32,000 nucleotides of DNA from Haloferax volcanii DS2 (GCF_000025685.1 NC_013964.1:390001-422000), one strand, 5' to 3'. Positions 17,283-24,804 are shown, numbered from the stretch's first letter. Notes: generated by a model not told the origin, from the letters alone. Translations and numbers: made by a program.

Positions 17283-18113
17283 ATGTCCCGATTCGTGGCG
17301 GCCGCGTGCCAGCTAGACTCCCGAGACGACAAGGCGGCGAACGTGGAGCGGGCGCTCGGCCTCCTCGACGAGGCCGCGGCCGACGGCGCTGATTTCGTGG
17401 CGTTCCCGGAGATGACGACCTTCATCGGCCCGGAAGAGCGGTTCGCAGAGGTCGCGGAGGCGCTGGATGGCCCGACGATACAACGGTTCTCGGAGAAGGC
17501 CCGCGAGCACGGCGTCTTCGTCCACACGGGCAGTTTCTTCGAGCGGATTCCGGACAGCGACCGAGTCTACAACACGTCGGCGCTCATCGGCCCGAGCGGC
17601 GAGGTGCTCGACACCTACCGGAAGGTCCACCTGTTCGACATCGAACTCGACGGCAGCGTCGAACACCGCGAGTCCGACTACGTCGCCCCCGGCGATAGGC
17701 CGGTGACGGTCGATACCGACCTCGCGACGTTCGGCCTCTCTATCTGCTACGACCTTCGGTTTCCGGGGCTCTACCGGGCGATGGCGCAGTCCGGCGCGAA
17801 CGTCCTACTCGTCCCGTCGGCGTTCACGATGCACACCGGAAAAGACCACTGGGAGCCGCTCCTTCGCGCCCGCGCCATCGAGAATCAGGCGTACGTCATC
17901 GCGCCCGGCCAAATCGGGGACAAGCCGTCGTGGGTCGAGACCTACGGCCGCACGCTCGTCGTCGACCCGTGGGGGAACGTGATTTCGAAGGCGCGGGACC
18001 GCGAGGAAGTCGTCACGGCGACCATCGACCTGTCGCATCTGGACGAGATTCGCCGCGACATGCAGACGCTCCAGCACGCGCGACCGGACGTGTACGAGCG
18101 GTCGGAGAAGTGA
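17283..18113 (+). CDS. Carbon-nitrogen hydrolase (nitrilase superfamily amidohydrolase)
   Basis: 276 aa with the Glu-Lys-Cys triad contexts FVAFPEM, YRKVHLFD and LSICYDLRFP. It is probably co-transcribed with the cupin gene (42-nt gap, no TATA). Confidence 0.85.
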   Translation: MSRFVAAACQLDSRDDKAANVERALGLLDEAAADGADFVAFPEMTTFIGPEERFAEVAEALDGPTIQRFSEKAREHGVFVHTGSFFERIPDSDRVYNTSALIGPSGEVLDTYRKVHLFDIELDGSVEHRESDYVAPGDRPVTVDTDLATFGLSICYDLRFPGLYRAMAQSGANVLLVPSAFTMHTGKDHWEPLLRARAIENQAYVIAPGQIGDKPSWVETYGRTLVVDPWGNVISKARDREEVVTATIDLSHLDEIRRDMQTLQHARPDVYERSEK

Positions 18114-18140: not shown

Positions 18141-20474
18141 TTAGCTCCCGCCGAGGACGCGCTTGAACAGCGTGAACGTGAGCAGGGTGAAGAACAGTCC
18201 GTTCAACATCCCCTGACTCGCCGCGAGCACCCGCGCCGCCGGCCCGAGCGGATTGATATCGCCGTAGCCGACCGTACTGAAGCTGATATAGCTGTAATAG
18301 ACGTTGTCGAAAAGCACTTCCATCGTCGTTTTGTCGACGGCGGCGGGGTCGAAGACGCTCCCCGCCTGCGTCAGGAACGGCCCGCCGAGGGCGTAACACA
18401 GTCCGAACAGCGCCGGGAGGAGGAACGTGAACGCCGCGATTCGCGGGAGTCGGTTGCCGTAGCCACAGGTGACCTGCATGAGCGTGTTCAGCCCCACGCT
18501 GGCGACCTTCTTGCCGCGGGCCCACGTGTTCAGCGAGTACTCGTTGAGGATGATGTCGAAGTTCTTCTGGCGGTTGTAGTAGTAACGCTTGAACTCGAAC
18601 TCGCGGCTCGCGGGGGTGTCGCCGACCGCGTTGGCGCTGTCCTGCGCTTTGCGGTACGTTTCTTCGATGATATCGGGCGTTAGCTCGACGGCGAACTGGC
18701 CGGTCGCGCCGTTGCCGACGAAGTCGTGGATGGTCCAGTCGTTGCGTTCGAGATAGCCGTGGTGGTCGCTGAAGTCGAAGCGGTCGAACTCGGTGAGGCA
18801 AAAGCGGAAGTGGTCCAAAAGCTGGTGTTCGTTGCCGCCGCCCTCCAGCGTCAGGTCGCCGATGGTCGCGCGGGTGAGGTCGTACGGCGTCGGCTCGCCG
18901 GAGCCCTGCGAAATCGTGCCGCCGTCGAGCGTCGCGTCGGTGAAGTCGAGGTAGGTGTCGCGGTCGCCGACGAGCACGCGGAAGCGCGCCGTCTCGAAGT
19001 CCGACTGCCGGAAGTCCGCCCGGTCGTGGAACGTCGTCTCCCAGAACGACGCGCTCGTGAAGTTCGCGGCCTCGAACTCCGCGCCGGCCTCGAAGGTCGC
19101 CCCGTTGAACGAGGCGTTGGCTTCGAGATGTTGCAGTTCGCCCTGGAAGAACGCCCCGCGGAAGGACGCGAGGCCGCGGAACGTGGCGGCGTTGAATCTC
19201 ACGTCCTCTTCGAATCGGGCCTCACCGAACCGGGCGTTCGATTGGAACTCGACCGCCTCGAACGAGGCATCGGAGCCGAACGTCGCTTCCTCGGCGACGA
19301 CGGCGTCGTGGAACTCGCTGTCGTCGAAGTTCGCTTGCCCGCCGAACGACGCCAAAGAGAGGTCGAACGCGCCGTCGACGCGGAGGCGATAGCAGTCGGT
19401 GCGGGCGGTGAACGTCGCGCGGTCGAAGCTGACCGCGCCCTTGAACACGGCGTCTTTGAAGTCCGAATAGCGGAATCGCGCGAGTTTGTAGTCGGCTTCG
19501 CCCTCGAACGTCGCGCCCTCGAACGTCACGTCGTCGTGGGTCGTCCGGCTGCCGCCGTTGAACTCGACGCCGCGGAACTCGGCCAACTGCATGAATCGGG
19601 CGTTTGCGAAGCTCGCGTCGTCGTCGAACCGCGCCTCGTCGAAGTCGGCCATCTCGTTGAAGCGGACGCCGTCGAACCGCGCGTCGCCCTCGAACTCGAC
19701 GTGTTCGAAGTCCGAGCCGGCGGTGAACCGCGCGCCGTCGAACGTCACGTAGTCGAAGAGGGCCTGTCTGAAGCTCGCGTCGTCGCGGAACGTCGCGTCC
19801 GCGAAGGTGATGTGGTCCTCCAGAACGTGACTACTCCCGCTGGTCTCGACGTTGCGGAAACGCGCCGTGCCGTGGAACGTGGCGTCCGCGAAGCTCGTGT
19901 CGCCCTGAAACACCGTCTCGTCGCACCGGACCTCGCCGCGGAAGGTCGCCCCCGAGAAGCGAACGTCCTGTTCGAACGTCGCCTCGTCGGCCGTCACCGC
20001 GCCGGTCACGGTGACTTCCCGGGCGTCCACGTCGCCGGTGACGACCGCCTCATCGAGTTTGAGGCGGTCGACCGTCGCCTCGCGGAGAATCAACCCTTGG
20101 TCGAGGCGGCCGTGGGTGAGGTCCAAGCCCTCGATATCGGCGTGCTGGAAGTTGAGGACGTGGTTCGTCGCGCCGTTGATGTCCTGATAGGTGAGCGAGA
20201 GATGCGGGAGGTCCGCGCCGACGTACTCGTTGACGCGGGTGTCGGGCGACTGGAGGTTCGCCCGGAGCTCGTCGACGATGTCGTCGCCGGTCACGTCGAG
20301 CGATGCGCGCTCGTCGCGGCTCATGTGGAACACGCAGAACTCGCTTTCGGGGTGGGCTTCGTGCGGACACTCCCACGTCGTCTGGAGGTGGGCGTCGGTC
20401 TGGACCGACGGGTCGAACGTGTACCGGCACGACGAGGAGGACATCAACGCCGGCGTGGACTCATTTCTCGACAT
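18141..20474 (-). CDS. Pentapeptide-repeat (beta-helix) protein fused to a 2-TM potassium-channel pore domain
   Basis: 777 aa. About 420 residues of A/S-x-F-x-x type repeats span residues ~100-520, e.g. ADATFHGTARF, FDGARFTAGSDFEHVEFEGDARFDGVRFNEMADFDEARFDDDASFANARF. The C-terminus runs TM1 IAAFTFLLPALFGLCYALGG, then pore helix plus filter YYSYISFSTVGYGDINPLG (TVGYG encoded at 18261-18275), then TM2 VLAASQGMLNGLFFTLLTFTLF. The N-terminus has a Cys/His cluster: CRYT...WECPHEAHPESEFCVFH. Confidence 0.85.
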   Translation of the reverse strand: MSRNESTPALMSSSSCRYTFDPSVQTDAHLQTTWECPHEAHPESEFCVFHMSRDERASLDVTGDDIVDELRANLQSPDTRVNEYVGADLPHLSLTYQDINGATNHVLNFQHADIEGLDLTHGRLDQGLILREATVDRLKLDEAVVTGDVDAREVTVTGAVTADEATFEQDVRFSGATFRGEVRCDETVFQGDTSFADATFHGTARFRNVETSGSSHVLEDHITFADATFRDDASFRQALFDYVTFDGARFTAGSDFEHVEFEGDARFDGVRFNEMADFDEARFDDDASFANARFMQLAEFRGVEFNGGSRTTHDDVTFEGATFEGEADYKLARFRYSDFKDAVFKGAVSFDRATFTARTDCYRLRVDGAFDLSLASFGGQANFDDSEFHDAVVAEEATFGSDASFEAVEFQSNARFGEARFEEDVRFNAATFRGLASFRGAFFQGELQHLEANASFNGATFEAGAEFEAANFTSASFWETTFHDRADFRQSDFETARFRVLVGDRDTYLDFTDATLDGGTISQGSGEPTPYDLTRATIGDLTLEGGGNEHQLLDHFRFCLTEFDRFDFSDHHGYLERNDWTIHDFVGNGATGQFAVELTPDIIEETYRKAQDSANAVGDTPASREFEFKRYYYNRQKNFDIILNEYSLNTWARGKKVASVGLNTLMQVTCGYGNRLPRIAAFTFLLPALFGLCYALGGPFLTQAGSVFDPAAVDKTTMEVLFDNVYYSYISFSTVGYGDINPLGPAARVLAASQGMLNGLFFTLLTFTLFKRVLGGS

Positions 20475-20553
20475 GGCTGGGGAGGGGCGGACGGCTGCGG
20501 TGGGCGCGCTGAGGACGGCGGGCGTGACGGATGCCGCGAGTCCGGCGGCCGAA

Positions 20554-20576
20554 CCGAGTGCGGCGAGCGCACTCGG
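20554..20576 (-). other. 9-bp-stem hairpin in the spacer upstream of the channel gene
   Basis: CCGAGTGCG-GCGAG-CGCACTCGG is a perfect inverted repeat. It lies between an ATATATAT TATA-like element (20637-20644) and the ATG at 20474. Confidence 0.6.
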
Positions 20577-20663
20577 GCGTCGGGGCGACGGTCGAACGCG
20601 CGGACAGTCGTATGTGCAACATTGTCTGGTGTTTTGATATATATCTTCGGACCGCCGTCGGCG

Positions 20664-21635
20664 TCAGTCGAATATCTCGCGGCGCTCGGACGCCGAGAGT
20701 TCGGCGTGAATCGCGTTGGGCGAGCAGTGTTCGCACTCGCGGGCGGGATTAGTGCTCTGCTCGAAGGTCCAAAGCGGCCACCCGAAGAGGAAAAACGCCT
20801 CCATCTGGTGGCGTTCGATGATGGCCTCGGCGGGCTTGCCGCAGTTCGGACACCACTCGTCGCCGTCGGCCGGCTCTTGGAACGTCACCTTCCGGCGGCC
20901 GAATCCGGCGTTCGAGTACGCCTCGCTTCGGGACATCTCGACGAGGTCCTCGGCTGGATACGGGTCGGCGTCGACCGCGTTGTCGAAGCCGGTGTCGGTC
21001 TCGACGCTCGACGCGAGATACGGCCCGACGCTGACGGTGTTGTCGTAGCCGACGAAGTGAACCGAAACGGCCGCGCCCCGACCCTCGACGCGCACCTCGT
21101 GGCCGTGGCCGACGAGGTAGAACTCCACGTCGGCGGTGACTTTCGTGAGGTCGATGTCGTGGGCCATTCCGACCGCGTAGACGCCCGTGTCCGGGTCGGT
21201 CGCGCTCCCCGACTGCTTCCAGCCGAAGGTGGACACGTCGTAGTCGTCGGGGGCGGCCGCGGGCGTTGCCTCGCCAGCGTAGACGTTCTCCGCGCCGGGT
21301 GCCGAAACCGCGCCGTCGGCGGCGTCCGCGGCGATGAACACGTCTTCGGCGTCGCCGAGAAGCACGTCGCCGGCGACCGACTGGACGTAGCCGTCTTCGA
21401 GACTGCCGCGGATTTCGGTCTCGACGGCCGCGTCGCCGCCCGTCCCATCGCCGACGGCCGCGTCGTCGGTCACCGGCGCGTGGGTGAAGACGTACTCGGC
21501 GTTCTGCACCGCGAGGTCGCCGGCGACGCTCGCGCCGCCGACGAACACGTCCGCGGGGTCGCGGAGTTCGACCGGGGGTCGTTCGGAGCCGTTGAGCGTC
21601 ACGTCGCCGTCGTAGGTGGAAGCGTTTCGGGTCAT
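20664..21635 (-). CDS. Acidic hypothetical protein with C-terminal split zinc ribbon
   Basis: 323 aa. The N-terminal half is made of short beta-strand-like repeats (DVFVGGASVAGDLAVQNAEYVF, VQSVAGDVLLGDAEDVFI, VEFYLVGHGHEVRVEGRGAAVSVHFVGYDNTVSV). The C-terminus has CPNCG, then 34 residues including FFLFGWPLWTF, then CEHC. It starts 16 nt after the upstream stop. Confidence 0.6.
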   Translation of the reverse strand: MTRNASTYDGDVTLNGSERPPVELRDPADVFVGGASVAGDLAVQNAEYVFTHAPVTDDAAVGDGTGGDAAVETEIRGSLEDGYVQSVAGDVLLGDAEDVFIAADAADGAVSAPGAENVYAGEATPAAAPDDYDVSTFGWKQSGSATDPDTGVYAVGMAHDIDLTKVTADVEFYLVGHGHEVRVEGRGAAVSVHFVGYDNTVSVGPYLASSVETDTGFDNAVDADPYPAEDLVEMSRSEAYSNAGFGRRKVTFQEPADGDEWCPNCGKPAEAIIERHQMEAFFLFGWPLWTFEQSTNPARECEHCSPNAIHAELSASERREIFD

Positions 21636-21651
21636 CGGTGGGTGTTGGGCG

Positions 21652-22176
21652 TCATCGCTGAGTTTTGGGCGTCATCGTCGTCTCCGTGTGCAGCGCGAGG
21701 TCGTACTCCGGGTAGGTGTGGTACGTCTCGTAGCCGCCGTCTGCGATGCGGATGGTGGTCCACGCCTCCGGGTCGAACCGGTAGGCGACCGTCGCGTCGT
21801 CCGGACCGGGGAAGGCGTCAAGCGGCCGGCCTTCGACGACCGTTTGGGCGTCGAGTCGGTCGCTCTCGAAGCTGAACTCGCGTTCCGCGCCGACGGAAAG
21901 CGGCGTCTCGTGGGTTCGCTCGTACGGCAGCGGCTTGCACGAACACAGCTCGTGGAAGTCGAGCGCCGGCAGGCCGACGTAGTGGGACTCGCCGATGACG
22001 GTGAGGACCGCCGGTTCGCCCGCGAGCGTCGCCGGGGAGACTGTCTTCACGTCCACGGTCGTCAGGTCTGGTGCGTCGGCGCTGTAACCGAAGTACAGTT
22101 CCGTCGGTGTCTCGGCCGGCGGCGACGGGTCGGCGGGGGAAGGCGATTCGGTCGTGGAAGGTGGGTGGGAGGGCAT
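21652..22176 (-). CDS. Hypothetical protein (174 aa), Pro/Ser-rich N-terminus
   Basis: It has acidic composition and starts 6 nt after the stop of the upstream aminopropyltransferase-like gene. Its C-terminal YETYHTYPEYDLALHTETT and central LTVIGESHYVGLP blocks remind me of bacterial DUF2617 proteins. That is from memory only and is unverified. Confidence 0.5.
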   Translation of the reverse strand: MPSHPPSTTESPSPADPSPPAETPTELYFGYSADAPDLTTVDVKTVSPATLAGEPAVLTVIGESHYVGLPALDFHELCSCKPLPYERTHETPLSVGAEREFSFESDRLDAQTVVEGRPLDAFPGPDDATVAYRFDPEAWTTIRIADGGYETYHTYPEYDLALHTETTMTPKTQR

Positions 22177-22182
22177 GGGAAA

Positions 22183-24009
22183 TCAGGTGTCGACGAGGAT
22201 GTCGTAGTTCGGGTGGAAGATGGAGTTCTCGCGGACGCCGCGGTAGTGCGGGACCGCGTGCCACTCGACTGCGCCGTAGTGTTCCTCGCGGGCGCGGACG
22301 TACCGGGTCGCGCCGTCGCCGGTGAGTCGGGGGCGGTCGCCGGGGGCGAGCACGTAGAACTGCTCGACGCGCTCGGTCTCGCCGTCGTCGTCGAGGTCCT
22401 CGCGCACCCAGTAGGAAAGCTCTCGGGTGAAGCCCGCGGCCCCGACGGTGTTGACGAACGCCTTGTGGTGTTCGGGGTAGGCGTCGGGCGAGTAGCCCCA
22501 CGTCACCGCGACGCCGTCCTCGGAGAGGTGGGTTCGGACGGAGCGGTAGAACTCCGTGGAGTAGAGGGTGAGCAGGTCGTCGTCGGTCGCGCCGGGGATG
22601 TCGAGCAACACGAGGTCGTACGTCTCGTTCGTCTTTTGGAGATAGCGGTAGCCGTCCGCGACCGTCGTGTTCAGCCGGTCGTACTCGTAGGCGTCGTCGT
22701 GCCAGCGGGCGAAAAACGGGTCCGTCTTCGCGTCGCGCATGAACTCGCCGTCGAGGTCGACGTGGTCGACGGTGACGCCGTACTCCCGCAGGTGGTCGAC
22801 GGCAATCCAGTCGCCGCCGCCGACGACGAGCACCTTGGTGTCGGGGCCGGGGTCGACCAGCGACATCGGCACGTCGACCAGCCCCTCGTGGTAGCTGTCG
22901 GCCCAACTCTCGCAGAGTTGGACGGCCGCGCCGAGGCGGAGGCACCGTTCTGTCCGCCCGTCGAAGTGCGGGTTCGGGCCGGTGCCGGTCCAGGTTCGGT
23001 CGTACCGGATGACGTGCTGGTAGGCGGTCGTCTCCTGTGAGGTGACCGTCGCGCGTATCGCGCCCGGCGGGTACTCGTTTTCTATCTGCTGTTCGAGGTA
23101 GAGCTGCGACAGGCGCTCGTCGGCGGCGTCGTGCTTGGCGACGACGCCCGCGTAGGTCGCCGTCAAGAGGAGGCAGACGACGAGGAGCGTCTTCGAGACG
23201 CGGGCGGCCGAAAGCGAGCGGTCGGAGCCGTCCGTTCTGGCGCTGGCGGCCGCGTTCCCGCCGGTGCCGGCGCTTGCGGACGCCTCGTCGCCGCCGAGGG
23301 GCCACCACGACCACGCGCCGAAGTGGGCGACGAAGACGAGCGCGGCGACCCCGTTGAGGAGCGCCAGCACGAATATCGTCGGGATGAGGCCGATGCCCGG
23401 GTAGAGGACGCGGGCGTAGACGACGGCACCGGCGAGGCCGCCGACGTAGTCCATCGCGAGGACGACCGAAAGCCCGCTTCTGCGGCCCTCGGTCCGCTCG
23501 ACGGTCCAGAGGGTGCCGACGGCGGCCACGACGAAATCGTGGATTCGCGTGCCGGCGGTCCGGAGCCACGAGGGCGTCGCCGACCCGTCGCCGTCGAGGT
23601 CGTCGAACATGCGGGTCAAAAGCGGGAGTTCGAACCCGGAGAGGAACCCGACGACGACGACCGGCAGGCGGGCGACGGTCCAGACGAGTTCCGCGGGCAC
23701 CGCCTGCGGGATGCGGACGCTGTTGAGGCCGACGATGAGCAGGAAGCCCGCGGGTGCGGCCGCGGCCAAGAGCACCTCGGTGCGGAAGAAGTTCCCGCCG
23801 AGGGTCTCGCCGTCGAGGTCGTCCGAAAGCGCCGCGCCGATGCCGAGGCTGAAGAAGTACAGCCCGACCGTGATGACGTACTGGGTGACCGTTCCGCCGT
23901 ACATCACCGTCAGCAGCTCCGAGTAGACGAACTCGTAGGCGAAGCTACAAAAGGACACCACGAAGGTGAGCGTCAGGAGCGTCGCCGTGTCGGTTCGTGT
24001 GTTAGACAT
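22183..24009 (-). CDS. Membrane-anchored polyamine aminopropyltransferase (spermidine/spermine synthase)-like protein
   Basis: 608 aa. The N-terminal ~250 aa carry about 7 TM helices, followed by an Ala/Gly/Ser linker. The C-terminal Rossmann domain has VLVVGGGDWIAVDHL, VDHVDLDGEF, DLVLLDIPGATDDD and LYSTEFY, which are the SpeE-type blocks. There is no TATA upstream, so it is likely co-transcribed with the lipoprotein gene. Confidence 0.8.
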   Translation of the reverse strand: MSNTRTDTATLLTLTFVVSFCSFAYEFVYSELLTVMYGGTVTQYVITVGLYFFSLGIGAALSDDLDGETLGGNFFRTEVLLAAAAPAGFLLIVGLNSVRIPQAVPAELVWTVARLPVVVVGFLSGFELPLLTRMFDDLDGDGSATPSWLRTAGTRIHDFVVAAVGTLWTVERTEGRRSGLSVVLAMDYVGGLAGAVVYARVLYPGIGLIPTIFVLALLNGVAALVFVAHFGAWSWWPLGGDEASASAGTGGNAAASARTDGSDRSLSAARVSKTLLVVCLLLTATYAGVVAKHDAADERLSQLYLEQQIENEYPPGAIRATVTSQETTAYQHVIRYDRTWTGTGPNPHFDGRTERCLRLGAAVQLCESWADSYHEGLVDVPMSLVDPGPDTKVLVVGGGDWIAVDHLREYGVTVDHVDLDGEFMRDAKTDPFFARWHDDAYEYDRLNTTVADGYRYLQKTNETYDLVLLDIPGATDDDLLTLYSTEFYRSVRTHLSEDGVAVTWGYSPDAYPEHHKAFVNTVGAAGFTRELSYWVREDLDDDGETERVEQFYVLAPGDRPRLTGDGATRYVRAREEHYGAVEWHAVPHYRGVRENSIFHPNYDILVDT

Positions 24010-24078: not shown

Positions 24079-24804
24079 TCAGATGCGCGGGGAGACTTTC
24101 CACTCTTCCTCGATGGAGTACCCCGCGTCACCGATGCCGTCGGTGACTTCGAGGTCGTAACACTCCCAGCGGAAGTCGTGGTTCACGTCGTCGCCGACGA
24201 TGTGCGCGCCGACGCGGTACCAGCCGTCGCGACCCAGTTGGCTCCCGTCGGACATGTCGTACTCGGCGGTGCCGCTCGGGTCCTGTATCTCGCGGTCCCA
24301 CGGCACCGGGCCGGCGTCGGGCGCGTCGTCGCGCATCGCCGCGGTCGACCCGAGGTAGGCGATGCCGAGCGCGGCGACGCCGACCGGGAACCGGCTCACT
24401 TTGCCGGCGTTGTTCTCGTACCAGTCGTCGGCGTAGTCGCCGCCGTGGTACCACGCGTGGCCGTGGACGGTCCGCGGAGCGGAGGCGTAGCCGCCTGTGC
24501 CGCGACCGGTCGCACCGCGGCCGCCACCGCCGCCGCCCTTTCCTTTCGCGCTCGCGACCCCGACGGGACTGAGCGCGGCCAGCGACTGCGGGTCGAACCC
24601 TGACAGCGACGACTGGTCGGCGGCTTCGTAGCGGGACATCACCCACGTCTGGTCGGCGAGGTCGACGACGAGCGAGCCGTCGGACACCTCGAAGTCGGAG
24701 ACGACGCTGGACTTTCGCGGGGGAGGGGAGTTCGAGCCGAGACAGCCGGCGAGCCCGCCGGCGGCCCCGAGACCGGTCAGTTGGAGGAACGTGCGGCGCT
24801 TCAT
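24079..24804 (-). CDS. Tat-secreted lipoprotein, unknown function
   Basis: From ATG 24804 the product begins MKRRTFLQLTGLGAAGGLAGCLG, a twin-arginine motif followed by the lipobox LAGC. It has the Gly run GKGGGGGGRGATGRGTGG and an aromatic/acidic mature domain. TTTTCT lies at -29. The track start at TTG 24825 is unlikely. Confidence 0.7.
   Translation of the reverse strand: MKRRTFLQLTGLGAAGGLAGCLGSNSPPPRKSSVVSDFEVSDGSLVVDLADQTWVMSRYEAADQSSLSGFDPQSLAALSPVGVASAKGKGGGGGGRGATGRGTGGYASAPRTVHGHAWYHGGDYADDWYENNAGKVSRFPVGVAALGIAYLGSTAAMRDDAPDAGPVPWDREIQDPSGTAEYDMSDGSQLGRDGWYRVGAHIVGDDVNHDFRWECYDLEVTDGIGDAGYSIEEEWKVSPRI

Follow-up and report, generated by a model that had tools for sequence, protein, structure and literature searches.

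The window analysed here is a stretch of 32,000 nucleotides from Haloferax volcanii DS2 (GCF_000025685.1 NC_013964.1:390001-422000; GC ~67%). On its minus strand lies a gene that fuses a long repeat solenoid to a K+ channel pore. Together with four partner genes it forms a five-gene module that is near-obligate and newly recognised here. The channel gene is called as a 777-codon open reading frame (ORF) without interruption, in agreement with a first-pass annotation made from the sequence alone. In GenBank, ADE01540.1 and most members of its cluster are annotated at 767 aa, with Met11 (window 20444) as the start. The full-length protein was modelled with AlphaFold2 (AF2) from an 83-sequence alignment, giving a mean predicted local distance difference test (pLDDT) of 89.5 and a predicted template modelling score (pTM) of 0.80. 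A separate AF2 model of residues 545-777 (pLDDT 86.7) reproduced the helical part. From the N-terminus to the transmembrane (TM) pore, the features in window coordinates are:

18141..20474, minus strand: full ORF of the channel gene, 777 aa, span including the stop codon; solenoid/K+ pore fusion
20325..20429, minus strand: N-terminal Cys/His cluster CRYTFDPSVQTDAHLQTTWECPHEAHPESEFCVFH (C16, C36-P-H38, H41, C47, H50)
18840..20222, minus strand: beta-solenoid, residues ~85-545 (PF13576; AF2 pLDDT mostly 94-98; periodicity)
18678..18839, minus strand: C-terminal solenoid cap and linker, residues 546-599 (conserved motif LLDxFRFCxTxFDxFDFSxH...RNDW; lower-confidence loop)
18465..18677, minus strand: three-helix connector, helices 600-617, 620-644 and 650-670 (conserved motif TYxKAxxSAxAVGD...EF..KR)
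18441..18470, minus strand: pre-TM1 loop TCGYGNRLPR, the exact translation at these coordinates and a second GYG-containing motif
18387..18449, minus strand: TM1 outer helix, residues 676-696 (hydropathy, AF2 helix)
18276..18326, minus strand: pore helix, residues 717-733 (AF2, Ion_trans_2 alignment)
18258..18275, minus strand: selectivity filter TVGYGD, residues 734-739 (T[IV]GYG in 84/84 homolog ORFs)
18156..18242, minus strand: TM2 inner helix, residues 745-773, then a short basic tail KRVLGGS (hydropathy, AF2)

By sequence and by predicted fold, the C-terminal module is a bona fide K+ channel pore. Residues 721-772 match the Pfam family Ion_trans_2 (PF07885) with 39.3 bits against a cut-off of 22.5 (E=5.8e-10). 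In the AF2 model an external loop separates TM1 from the pore helix, and the signature filter T-x-G-[YF]-G follows the pore helix, between the two TM helices, where the first-pass annotation had expected TVGYGD to be. Its term "KcsA-like" is acceptable if taken broadly, for any two-TM pore. Both TM ends are bordered by Arg and Lys on the cytoplasmic side, and these positions and the hydropathy fit an N-in, C-in topology. When the C-terminal module was searched as a profile, only K+ channels appeared among the best 60 PDB matches listed, with TOK1 at 2.4e-7, the Slo2 pore at 5.7e-7 and KirBac3.1 at 1.7e-6, then Lmo2059, AKT1, KCNQ and NaK. The Foldseek alignment to KirBac3.1 covers 95-98 residues (root-mean-square deviation (rmsd) 3.2-3.4, probability 1.0). 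By homology to K+ channels, the protein would form a homotetramer that conducts K+, with the N-terminal solenoids in the cytoplasm. Scans of the channel protein against Pfam and NCBIfam found no RCK/TrkA, cyclic-nucleotide-binding, voltage-sensor or other domain, so that the earlier statement that canonical gating domains are missing holds for both databases.

The solenoid is the larger part of the protein. The Pfam scan assigns 11 stretches to Pentapeptide_3 (PF13576; 183.9 bits against a cut-off of 27, E=5e-55), and such tandem copies above the gathering score are those of a pentapeptide repeat protein (PRP). PF00805 remains just under its cut-off (18.2 against 20.2). Of the Pfam families named beforehand, PF07885 was recovered; the repeats are assigned to PF13576 instead of PF00805. 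The K+ channel and Qnr/HetL models of NCBIfam match only below threshold, and designed PRPs as well as Qnr and HetL models match weakly. In the AF2 model short strands run unbroken from residue ~85 to ~545, and the repeat region models confidently as one continuous beta-solenoid, as had been anticipated.

The geometry of the coil departs from the canonical one in its length of 22 residues. The first coils are Leu-centred and canonical-like, and Phe-centred coils of 22 residues start from approximately residue 165. The spacing from Phe to Phe alternates between 5 and 6, the strand starts in the model alternate likewise, and the sequence autocorrelation has its maxima at 5, 6, 11, 22, 33 and 44, not at 10 and 20. 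Each row of four strands therefore has faces of 5+6+5+6 residues, for example ATFEQDVRFSGATFRGEVRCDE. The ~460 residues of the solenoid give ~18-21 coils. The first-pass annotation, which proposed Phe-centred repeats in roughly 20 coils, was close in coil number; however, its canonical right-handed quadrilateral beta-helix (four 5-residue faces, 20 residues per coil) does not describe the coil found here. A beta-helix rises ~4.8 Å per coil, and from ~21 coils we estimate a rod of ~100 Å. The structural match to MfpA is weak (Foldseek probability 0.25). Longer relatives exist: P0038, P0042-P0044, P0049, P0158 and P0261 have 1000-1506 aa, and the ORF extracted at locus L062 has 1667 aa. The longest contain up to ~37 coil matches, about twice the solenoid length, with the same connector and pore. 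The rod length thus varies among relatives, which bears on the idea of a molecular ruler.

At its far end the solenoid carries an N-terminal cap (residues 11-84) with short strands and three helices in the AF2 model. The pLDDT is 82-95 over residues 11-60, but 69 over residues 21-30. The Cys/His cluster noticed at first pass is present in this cap, as C16, C36-P-H38 and C47-x-x-H50; however, it is limited to ~35/84 homologs, namely the clade of the window's protein and some others. It is seen again as ECPHPPVGESRFCIFH in the distant metagenomic relative P0177. The cluster is probably a Zn-binding cap. Residues 1-10 are the sole part of the model with pLDDT <50 and are disordered in it. The earlier ORF began at the first ATG (window 20442-20474, minus strand), and sequence conservation begins at approximately Cys16.

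The connector is common to distant relatives, and the stretch RYYYNRQKNFDIILNEY sits within its predicted helix 620-644. Between helix 650-670 and TM1 the AF2 model has a five-residue loop. C670, G671 and R678 of the pre-TM1 loop are invariant in the 83 aligned sequences, and the solenoid cap and the connector contain invariant residues as well. In distant relatives, some without a selectivity filter among them, the loop reads GYGE[RK]P. The loop is predicted by the model to lie at the cytoplasmic face of the membrane, beside the inner gate, where it and the connector link the solenoid with the pore.

The whole architecture is kept in homologs from many genera at 33-98% identity. A homolog search returned 1112 proteins, of which the best 120 are nearly all full-length with both Pfam families; represented among them are Haloferax, Halopelagius, Halogranum, Haladaptatus, Halorussus, Salinigranum, Halogeometricum, Halarchaeum, Natrinema, Natronomonas, Haloquadratum and Nanohaloarchaea. 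Scanning of species-representative genomes located 80 loci, all in Halobacteria. T734, G736, Y737, G738 and P742 are invariant in the 83 aligned sequences, and the residue after GYG is D, G, N or F among the 84 locus-derived ORFs. The possibility that the fusion is a frameshift or an assembly artefact, raised at first pass, is rejected, as a single gene is full-length in more than 80 Halobacteria loci from many genera. That the fusion and its fold are real is, in our judgement, close to certain.

A search with residues 545-777 among 1.84 billion representatives found 839 clusters at E<=1e-3 and 124 at E<=1e-10. The C-terminal module is always C-terminal in its matches, in proteins of ~280-1500 aa, fragments excluded. 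Among the 150 best matches, 96 have at least two solenoid-coil matches and 96 have a TxG[YFL]G filter; ~54 are without a recognisable filter, and most of these retain the pre-TM1 GYGE[RK]P loop. By charge composition, a rough proxy, ~46% of the 150 do not look like proteins of halophiles. Named members outside the haloarchaea are nanohaloarchaeal proteins and a 314-aa "potassium channel family protein" of Paraclostridium ghonii, which has both Pfam families. Neither the operon described below nor defence genes were found in the gene contexts of these bacterial and nanohaloarchaeal members. Since they are unlinked, the solenoid-connector-pore design is older and wider than the association with an operon, which is specific to Halobacteria.

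At five loci (L066, L068, L073, L077 and L081) the extracted ORFs are short (179-429 aa), yet tblastn spans nearly the full query in most of them. Pseudogenes with frameshifts, sequencing errors or faulty ORF extraction could account for this. Several are second, operon-unlinked paralogs beside a linked copy, for example in Halosimplex amylolyticum and H. salinum.

The architecture is not new to the databases: it has more than 1000 homologs, in Nanohaloarchaea and Paraclostridium as well, and it is already annotated. The names given to the protein are "pentapeptide repeat-containing protein", "Potassium channel domain-containing protein", "Ion channel" and "potassium channel family protein", and none of them implies a studied function. 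Neither full-text literature searches nor a 2021 PRP review yielded a publication on a solenoid-K+ pore architecture. The PRP gene in a 2026 H. volcanii paper is HVO_2017, another, chromosomal gene. The family is thus large, annotated and unstudied, and its pore and its repeats each come from a known superfamily.

The gene contexts of three homologs (L001-L003, with 75%, 64% and 37% identity) contain a same-strand set of four genes beside the channel: DUF8229, a ~590-aa Spermine_synth protein, DUF2617 and DUF8108. At L002 an unannotated gene of similar size occupies the DUF2617 position, and the DUF8108 counterpart at L003, a 318-aa gene that has no Pfam call, follows the channel. The window holds the same set, upstream of the channel gene:

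24079..24804, minus strand: DUF8229-like protein with a twin-arginine lipoprotein signal MKRRTFLQLTGLGAAGGLAGC (twin-arginine translocation (Tat) lipobox)
22183..24009, minus strand: multi-TM and spermidine/spermine-synthase-like enzyme, 608 aa, ADE01626.1 (Pfam, PDB match, TM segments)
21652..22176, minus strand: DUF2617 protein, 174 aa, ADE01337.1 (PF10936, 24.7 bits against a cut-off of 22.3)
20664..21635, minus strand: DUF8108 protein, 323 aa, ADE01362.1 (linkage to the channel in varied position and orientation)

Linkage was measured in both directions. In the forward test, the window's neighbours were searched with tblastn against 83 channel loci, counting partners within 10 kb. All four partners are present at 60 of the 83 loci, two at one truncated locus and none at 22. 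The survey of haloarchaea proposed at first pass finds the fusion conserved, and its neighbours with it at these 60 loci. The linked loci show the canonical order in 25 cases; DUF8108 is inverted and upstream of the DUF8229-SpmSyn-DUF2617 triad (SpmSyn being the spermidine/spermine-synthase-like enzyme) in 14 of 60, and it follows the channel in 11 of 60. The triad is inverted and downstream of the channel in 8 of 60, and two singleton arrangements occur once each. The triad is collinear in all linked loci. Persistence of the linkage through six arrangements argues for selection rather than inherited synteny. A carbon-nitrogen hydrolase neighbour serves as an internal negative control, as it is kept beside the channel only within Haloferax.

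In the reciprocal test, 26 aligned orthologs of the SpmSyn-like enzyme were used to scan independent metagenome contigs. The channel, DUF2617, DUF8108 and DUF8229 are all present at 24 of the 25 enzyme loci with at least 5 kb on both sides, and the channel is found at 43 of the 46 loci with at least 4 kb downstream. The sole well-flanked exception (L164:9998-12587, plus strand) is an outgroup archaeal gene for a multi-TM SpmSyn-like enzyme of 31% identity, in a neighbourhood that also holds OapB and OapC. The next genes encode a 219-aa uncharacterised protein and AdoMet decarboxylase, and no channel, DUF2617 or DUF8108 is present. This enzyme and AdoMet decarboxylase are a conventional polyamine-synthesis pairing, and the haloarchaeal module thus differs from a plain membrane polyamine-synthesis pair. 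In the literature searched we found no paper that describes the five-gene module, and the H. volcanii "open issues" annotation paper is silent on it.

The enzyme has ~7-8 hydrophobic segments in residues 9-293 and matches PF01564 at residues 371-517 (E=7e-15); against the Thermus SpeE aminopropyltransferase 1uir the match is E=3.5e-17. In the SpmSyn-like domain (residues ~394-480) GGGD is kept, and the first Asp is kept in LLDIPGATDDD. The second Asp was placed with a D-x-x-D-P-type motif, which we take to be the canonical one of spermidine synthases. At this position 26/26 aligned orthologs have Gly, with P472 and G473 invariant, so the substrate or chemistry of the enzyme may differ from that of canonical spermidine synthases. 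The DUF8229-like protein is 65% identical (tblastn) to a region of L001 with a DUF8229 gene call, and its Tat lipoprotein signal predicts a location on the outside of the membrane. The DUF8108 protein is beta-rich and ends in a CPxC...CxxC zinc ribbon (CPNC...CEHC). PDB sequence searches gave no solved relative for DUF8108 or DUF2617. The three upstream proteins are identical to H. volcanii ADE01626.1, ADE01337.1 (UniProt D4GQ03_HALVD) and ADE01362.1 (D4GQ02_HALVD).

Several observations concern the surroundings of the channel gene. The carbon-nitrogen hydrolase (nitrilase superfamily) gene at 17283-18113, plus strand, converges on it with 27 bp between the stop codons. This neighbour, a cupin and Asp-Al_Ex are conserved only within Haloferax and were rejected as functional partners. 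An antisense 1049-aa ORF (18726..21875, plus strand) overlaps the channel and DUF8108 genes; it was rejected as a real gene because the minus-strand product has strong hidden Markov model matches and homologs, and it is a by-product of high GC. An AT-rich element GATATATATCAAAAC lies at 20630-20645 (minus-strand reading), just past the DUF8108 stop and ~155-185 nt 5' of the channel start codons. Either a TATA-like promoter, which would give the channel a separate transcript with a long leader, or part of a terminator region could lie here. Haloferax sp. S1W (83% identity, plasmid) has all four partners, with extra DNA inserted between them.

The first-pass annotation knew of no characterised channel with such a module, and the structural searches made here point to one characterised channel that resembles the protein. 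HalA (9nyi_A, "HalA in complex with oligodeoxyadenylate") is the top Foldseek match in the PDB for the full model (E=2.4e-4, probability 1.0), with 359 aligned columns to its 333-residue chain and a template modelling score of 0.41 normalised to HalA. For the C-terminal module it ranks second (196/233 columns, score 0.40, rmsd 6.4). The number of aligned columns shows that the resemblance spans the connector helices and the pore, and since inclusion of the solenoid raises the score, a part of the cytoplasmic region of HalA is covered as well. In PMC13434031 HalA is described as a tetrameric channel, the effector of the Hailong anti-phage system, and its gating is controlled by a long cytoplasmic extension. 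HalB produces short oligo-dA, which occupies the subunit interfaces of the HalA crown and holds the channel closed; once the ligand is lost, HalA opens and the cell depolarises (PMC13434031; Tan et al. 2025 as summarised there).

We suggest that the Haloferax protein is a K+ channel whose solenoid serves as a regulatory docking module for the five-gene system. With the gating mechanism deduced rather than observed, we give this reading a probability of roughly 0.5. Its parts differ in strength. Functional coupling of the channel to the module is very probable. Gating through the solenoid by a component of the module, which we propose from the anatomy, the linkage and the HalA precedent, is a tentative suggestion and falls short of an even chance. 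Among the roles named at first pass (ruler, scaffold, mechanical element or receptor), the operon linkage favours that of a receptor for a partner.

By analogy with other TVGYG pores, the pore would conduct K+ as a tetramer, and the solenoid and connector would act as a docking and gating module at the inner gate. One candidate signal would be DUF8108 or DUF2617 docking on the solenoid, as PRP surfaces can bind proteins, compare SV2. The other would be an aminopropylated product of the operon enzyme; polyamines are classic cytoplasmic blockers of Kir channels. In either case K+ flux could become coupled to the membrane enzyme system, in parallel to the ligand at the crown that holds HalA shut. 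It can further be speculated that the protein represents an uncharacterised class of K+ channels in which the solenoid is a "crown", a gate receptor for partners or for the aminopropylated product, with ancestry or design shared with HalA. We consider this wider proposal rather unlikely.

Several observations weigh against the docking-module reading. At 22/83 channel loci the operon is missing, including that of an 83%-identical Haloferax larsenii ortholog, and the nanohaloarchaeal and bacterial members are also unlinked; the channel can thus exist without the module. L011 and L013 (Haloferax larsenii and H. elongans, 83% identity) are two such loci, without the four partners within 10 kb. In the window a gap of 190-220 bp separates the channel gene from DUF8108, so the two need not share a transcript here. 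About one third of the distant relatives with connector and TM helices are without a recognisable filter, which means that K+ conduction is not a constant of the whole family. Finally, the resemblance to HalA is modest (template modelling scores of 0.40-0.41, 13% identity) and invisible to sequence searches.

The operon-less loci in Halobacteria and other lineages and the intergenic gap upstream of the gene, together with the intact and invariant filter, would also be compatible with a stand-alone channel for K+ homeostasis. Its solenoid would be a passive spacer, ruler or scaffold, and the operon would be incidental or purely co-regulatory. However, a linkage that survives six arrangements and recurs in 24/25 reciprocal loci is not expected of incidental neighbours, and the residue-level conservation of solenoid, connector and pre-TM1 loop exceeds what a passive spacer needs. 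We find such a stand-alone channel unlikely.

The pore might instead be mainly a tetrameric anchor, with the four solenoids forming a submembrane platform for a complex around the aminopropyltransferase-like enzyme and with conduction secondary or absent. This proposal fits the many distant relatives in which solenoid, connector, GYGE[RK]P loop and TM hairpin persist without a recognisable filter, the solenoid does offer a large rigid surface, and a PRP domain is a protein receptor on the transporter SV2 (PMC8145042). However, T[IV]GYG is kept in 84/84 haloarchaeal homologs, and across the 83 aligned sequences the conservation of the pore helix and of P742 is strong. This conservation points to selection on a working filter in haloarchaea, and a mere anchor is rather improbable.

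That HalA is the best structural match in the PDB raises the question of an abortive-infection or anti-virus effector of HalA type, in which a constitutive ligand closes the channel and infection opens it, collapsing the membrane potential. The gene is on a megaplasmid in several species, a location that would suit such an effector, and in principle a small-molecule signal could come from the linked enzyme. On the other hand, neither the module nor L001-L003 has a HalB nucleotidyltransferase, and 9nyi is absent from the phmmer list and from the best 60 PDB profile matches listed. PADLOC has no match for the channel, although its 2023 release may predate Hailong, and only a weak methyltransferase-fold match for the enzyme. 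Membership in Hailong was rejected on these three grounds (HalA sequence, HalB gene, PADLOC). The module is moreover broad across Halobacteria, not patchy like a defence island, and a strict K+ filter would be odd for a depolarising toxin in a cell with molar K+. A defence effector is very unlikely. Least plausible of all, with only a slight chance, is that the solenoid imitates DNA as MfpA and Qnr do, tethering or regulating gyrase or another DNA-binding enzyme at the membrane. Membership in the pentapeptide-repeat superfamily and the strong acidity of the protein (D+E ~17%) speak for it, but such acidity is generic for haloarchaeal proteins, the 22-residue coil differs in geometry, MfpA matches poorly, and no DNA-metabolism genes are linked in the window or at L001-L003.

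The docking-module reading, if true, would have several consequences. To our knowledge, all well-studied gating modules of K+ channels are voltage sensors, RCK/Kir-type, cyclic-nucleotide-binding or Ca-binding domains, and we know of no function for most pentapeptide-type repeats. A cytoplasmic module that consists of a solenoid only would be a new mode of control for K+ pores and would give pentapeptide-type repeats a new task. Under the wider proposal, the operon would directly encode a coupling of polyamine-type chemistry to K+ flux in haloarchaea. The two-way linkage makes five families of "unknown function" one testable system, and this system is on pHV3 of H. volcanii, a genetically tractable model archaeon.

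Compared with the two-TM K+ channels (KirBac3.1, KcsA, NaK, Lmo2059 and the pore repeats of TOK1), the Haloferax channel has the same TM1, pore helix, T-V-G-Y-G filter and TM2, and its profile matches to this group range from 1e-7 to 1e-5. It differs in being without the RCK, Kir-type Ig-like, cyclic-nucleotide-binding and voltage-sensor domains. Its cytoplasmic module is N-terminal, not C-terminal, and is a beta-solenoid, and the three-helix connector and the C-G-[YH]-G-x-R loop before TM1 are specific to its family.

With PRPs such as MfpA, Qnr, AlbG and HetL (PF00805, PF13599) it shares a repeat beta-solenoid in which the central Phe or Leu points inward. However, the Haloferax solenoid belongs to PF13576, has a 22-residue coil and ~20 coils, and is fused to a membrane pore. 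The solved PRPs have 4-10 coils. A pentapeptide-repeat solenoid fused to a membrane transport protein is also found in SV2, where the PRP domain serves as a protein-binding surface, the receptor for botulinum toxin A (PMC8145042). SV2 is eukaryotic, with a luminal domain of four and a half coils on a 12-TM, MFS-type transporter (major facilitator superfamily), while the Haloferax protein is a channel.

HalA has 333 residues, the Haloferax channel 767-777. Depolarisation by HalA is reported with Na+ influx, whereas the Haloferax channel has a canonical K+ filter. The structural echo suggests that tetrameric channels gated by a solenoid or crown may be a wider design, used both in housekeeping and in immunity.

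The module as a whole has its closest parallel in bacteria. Comparative genomics of PSP envelope-stress systems describes operons with a 7TM spermine-synthase-like protein, a lipoprotein, DUF350, DUF4178, DUF4247 and DUF2617, and one variant includes a ligand-sensing K+ channel (PMC11237479). Its authors propose that these operons monitor polyamines or aminopropylation and adjust membrane-associated complexes (PMC11237479). The two kinds of cluster each combine an aminopropyltransferase-like multi-TM enzyme with DUF2617, a secreted lipoprotein and a K+ channel. DUF350, DUF4178, DUF4247, PspA and CesT were not found in Pfam scans of the module genes and other window ORFs or in the L001-L003 lists. 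In place of the bacterial DUF4247, DUF350 and DUF4178, the haloarchaeal module has DUF8229 and DUF8108, and its channel, a possible counterpart of the bacterial one, carries a PRP solenoid. As an apparent archaeal variant of the bacterial theme, the haloarchaeal module would extend the polyamine-linked membrane operons to archaea.

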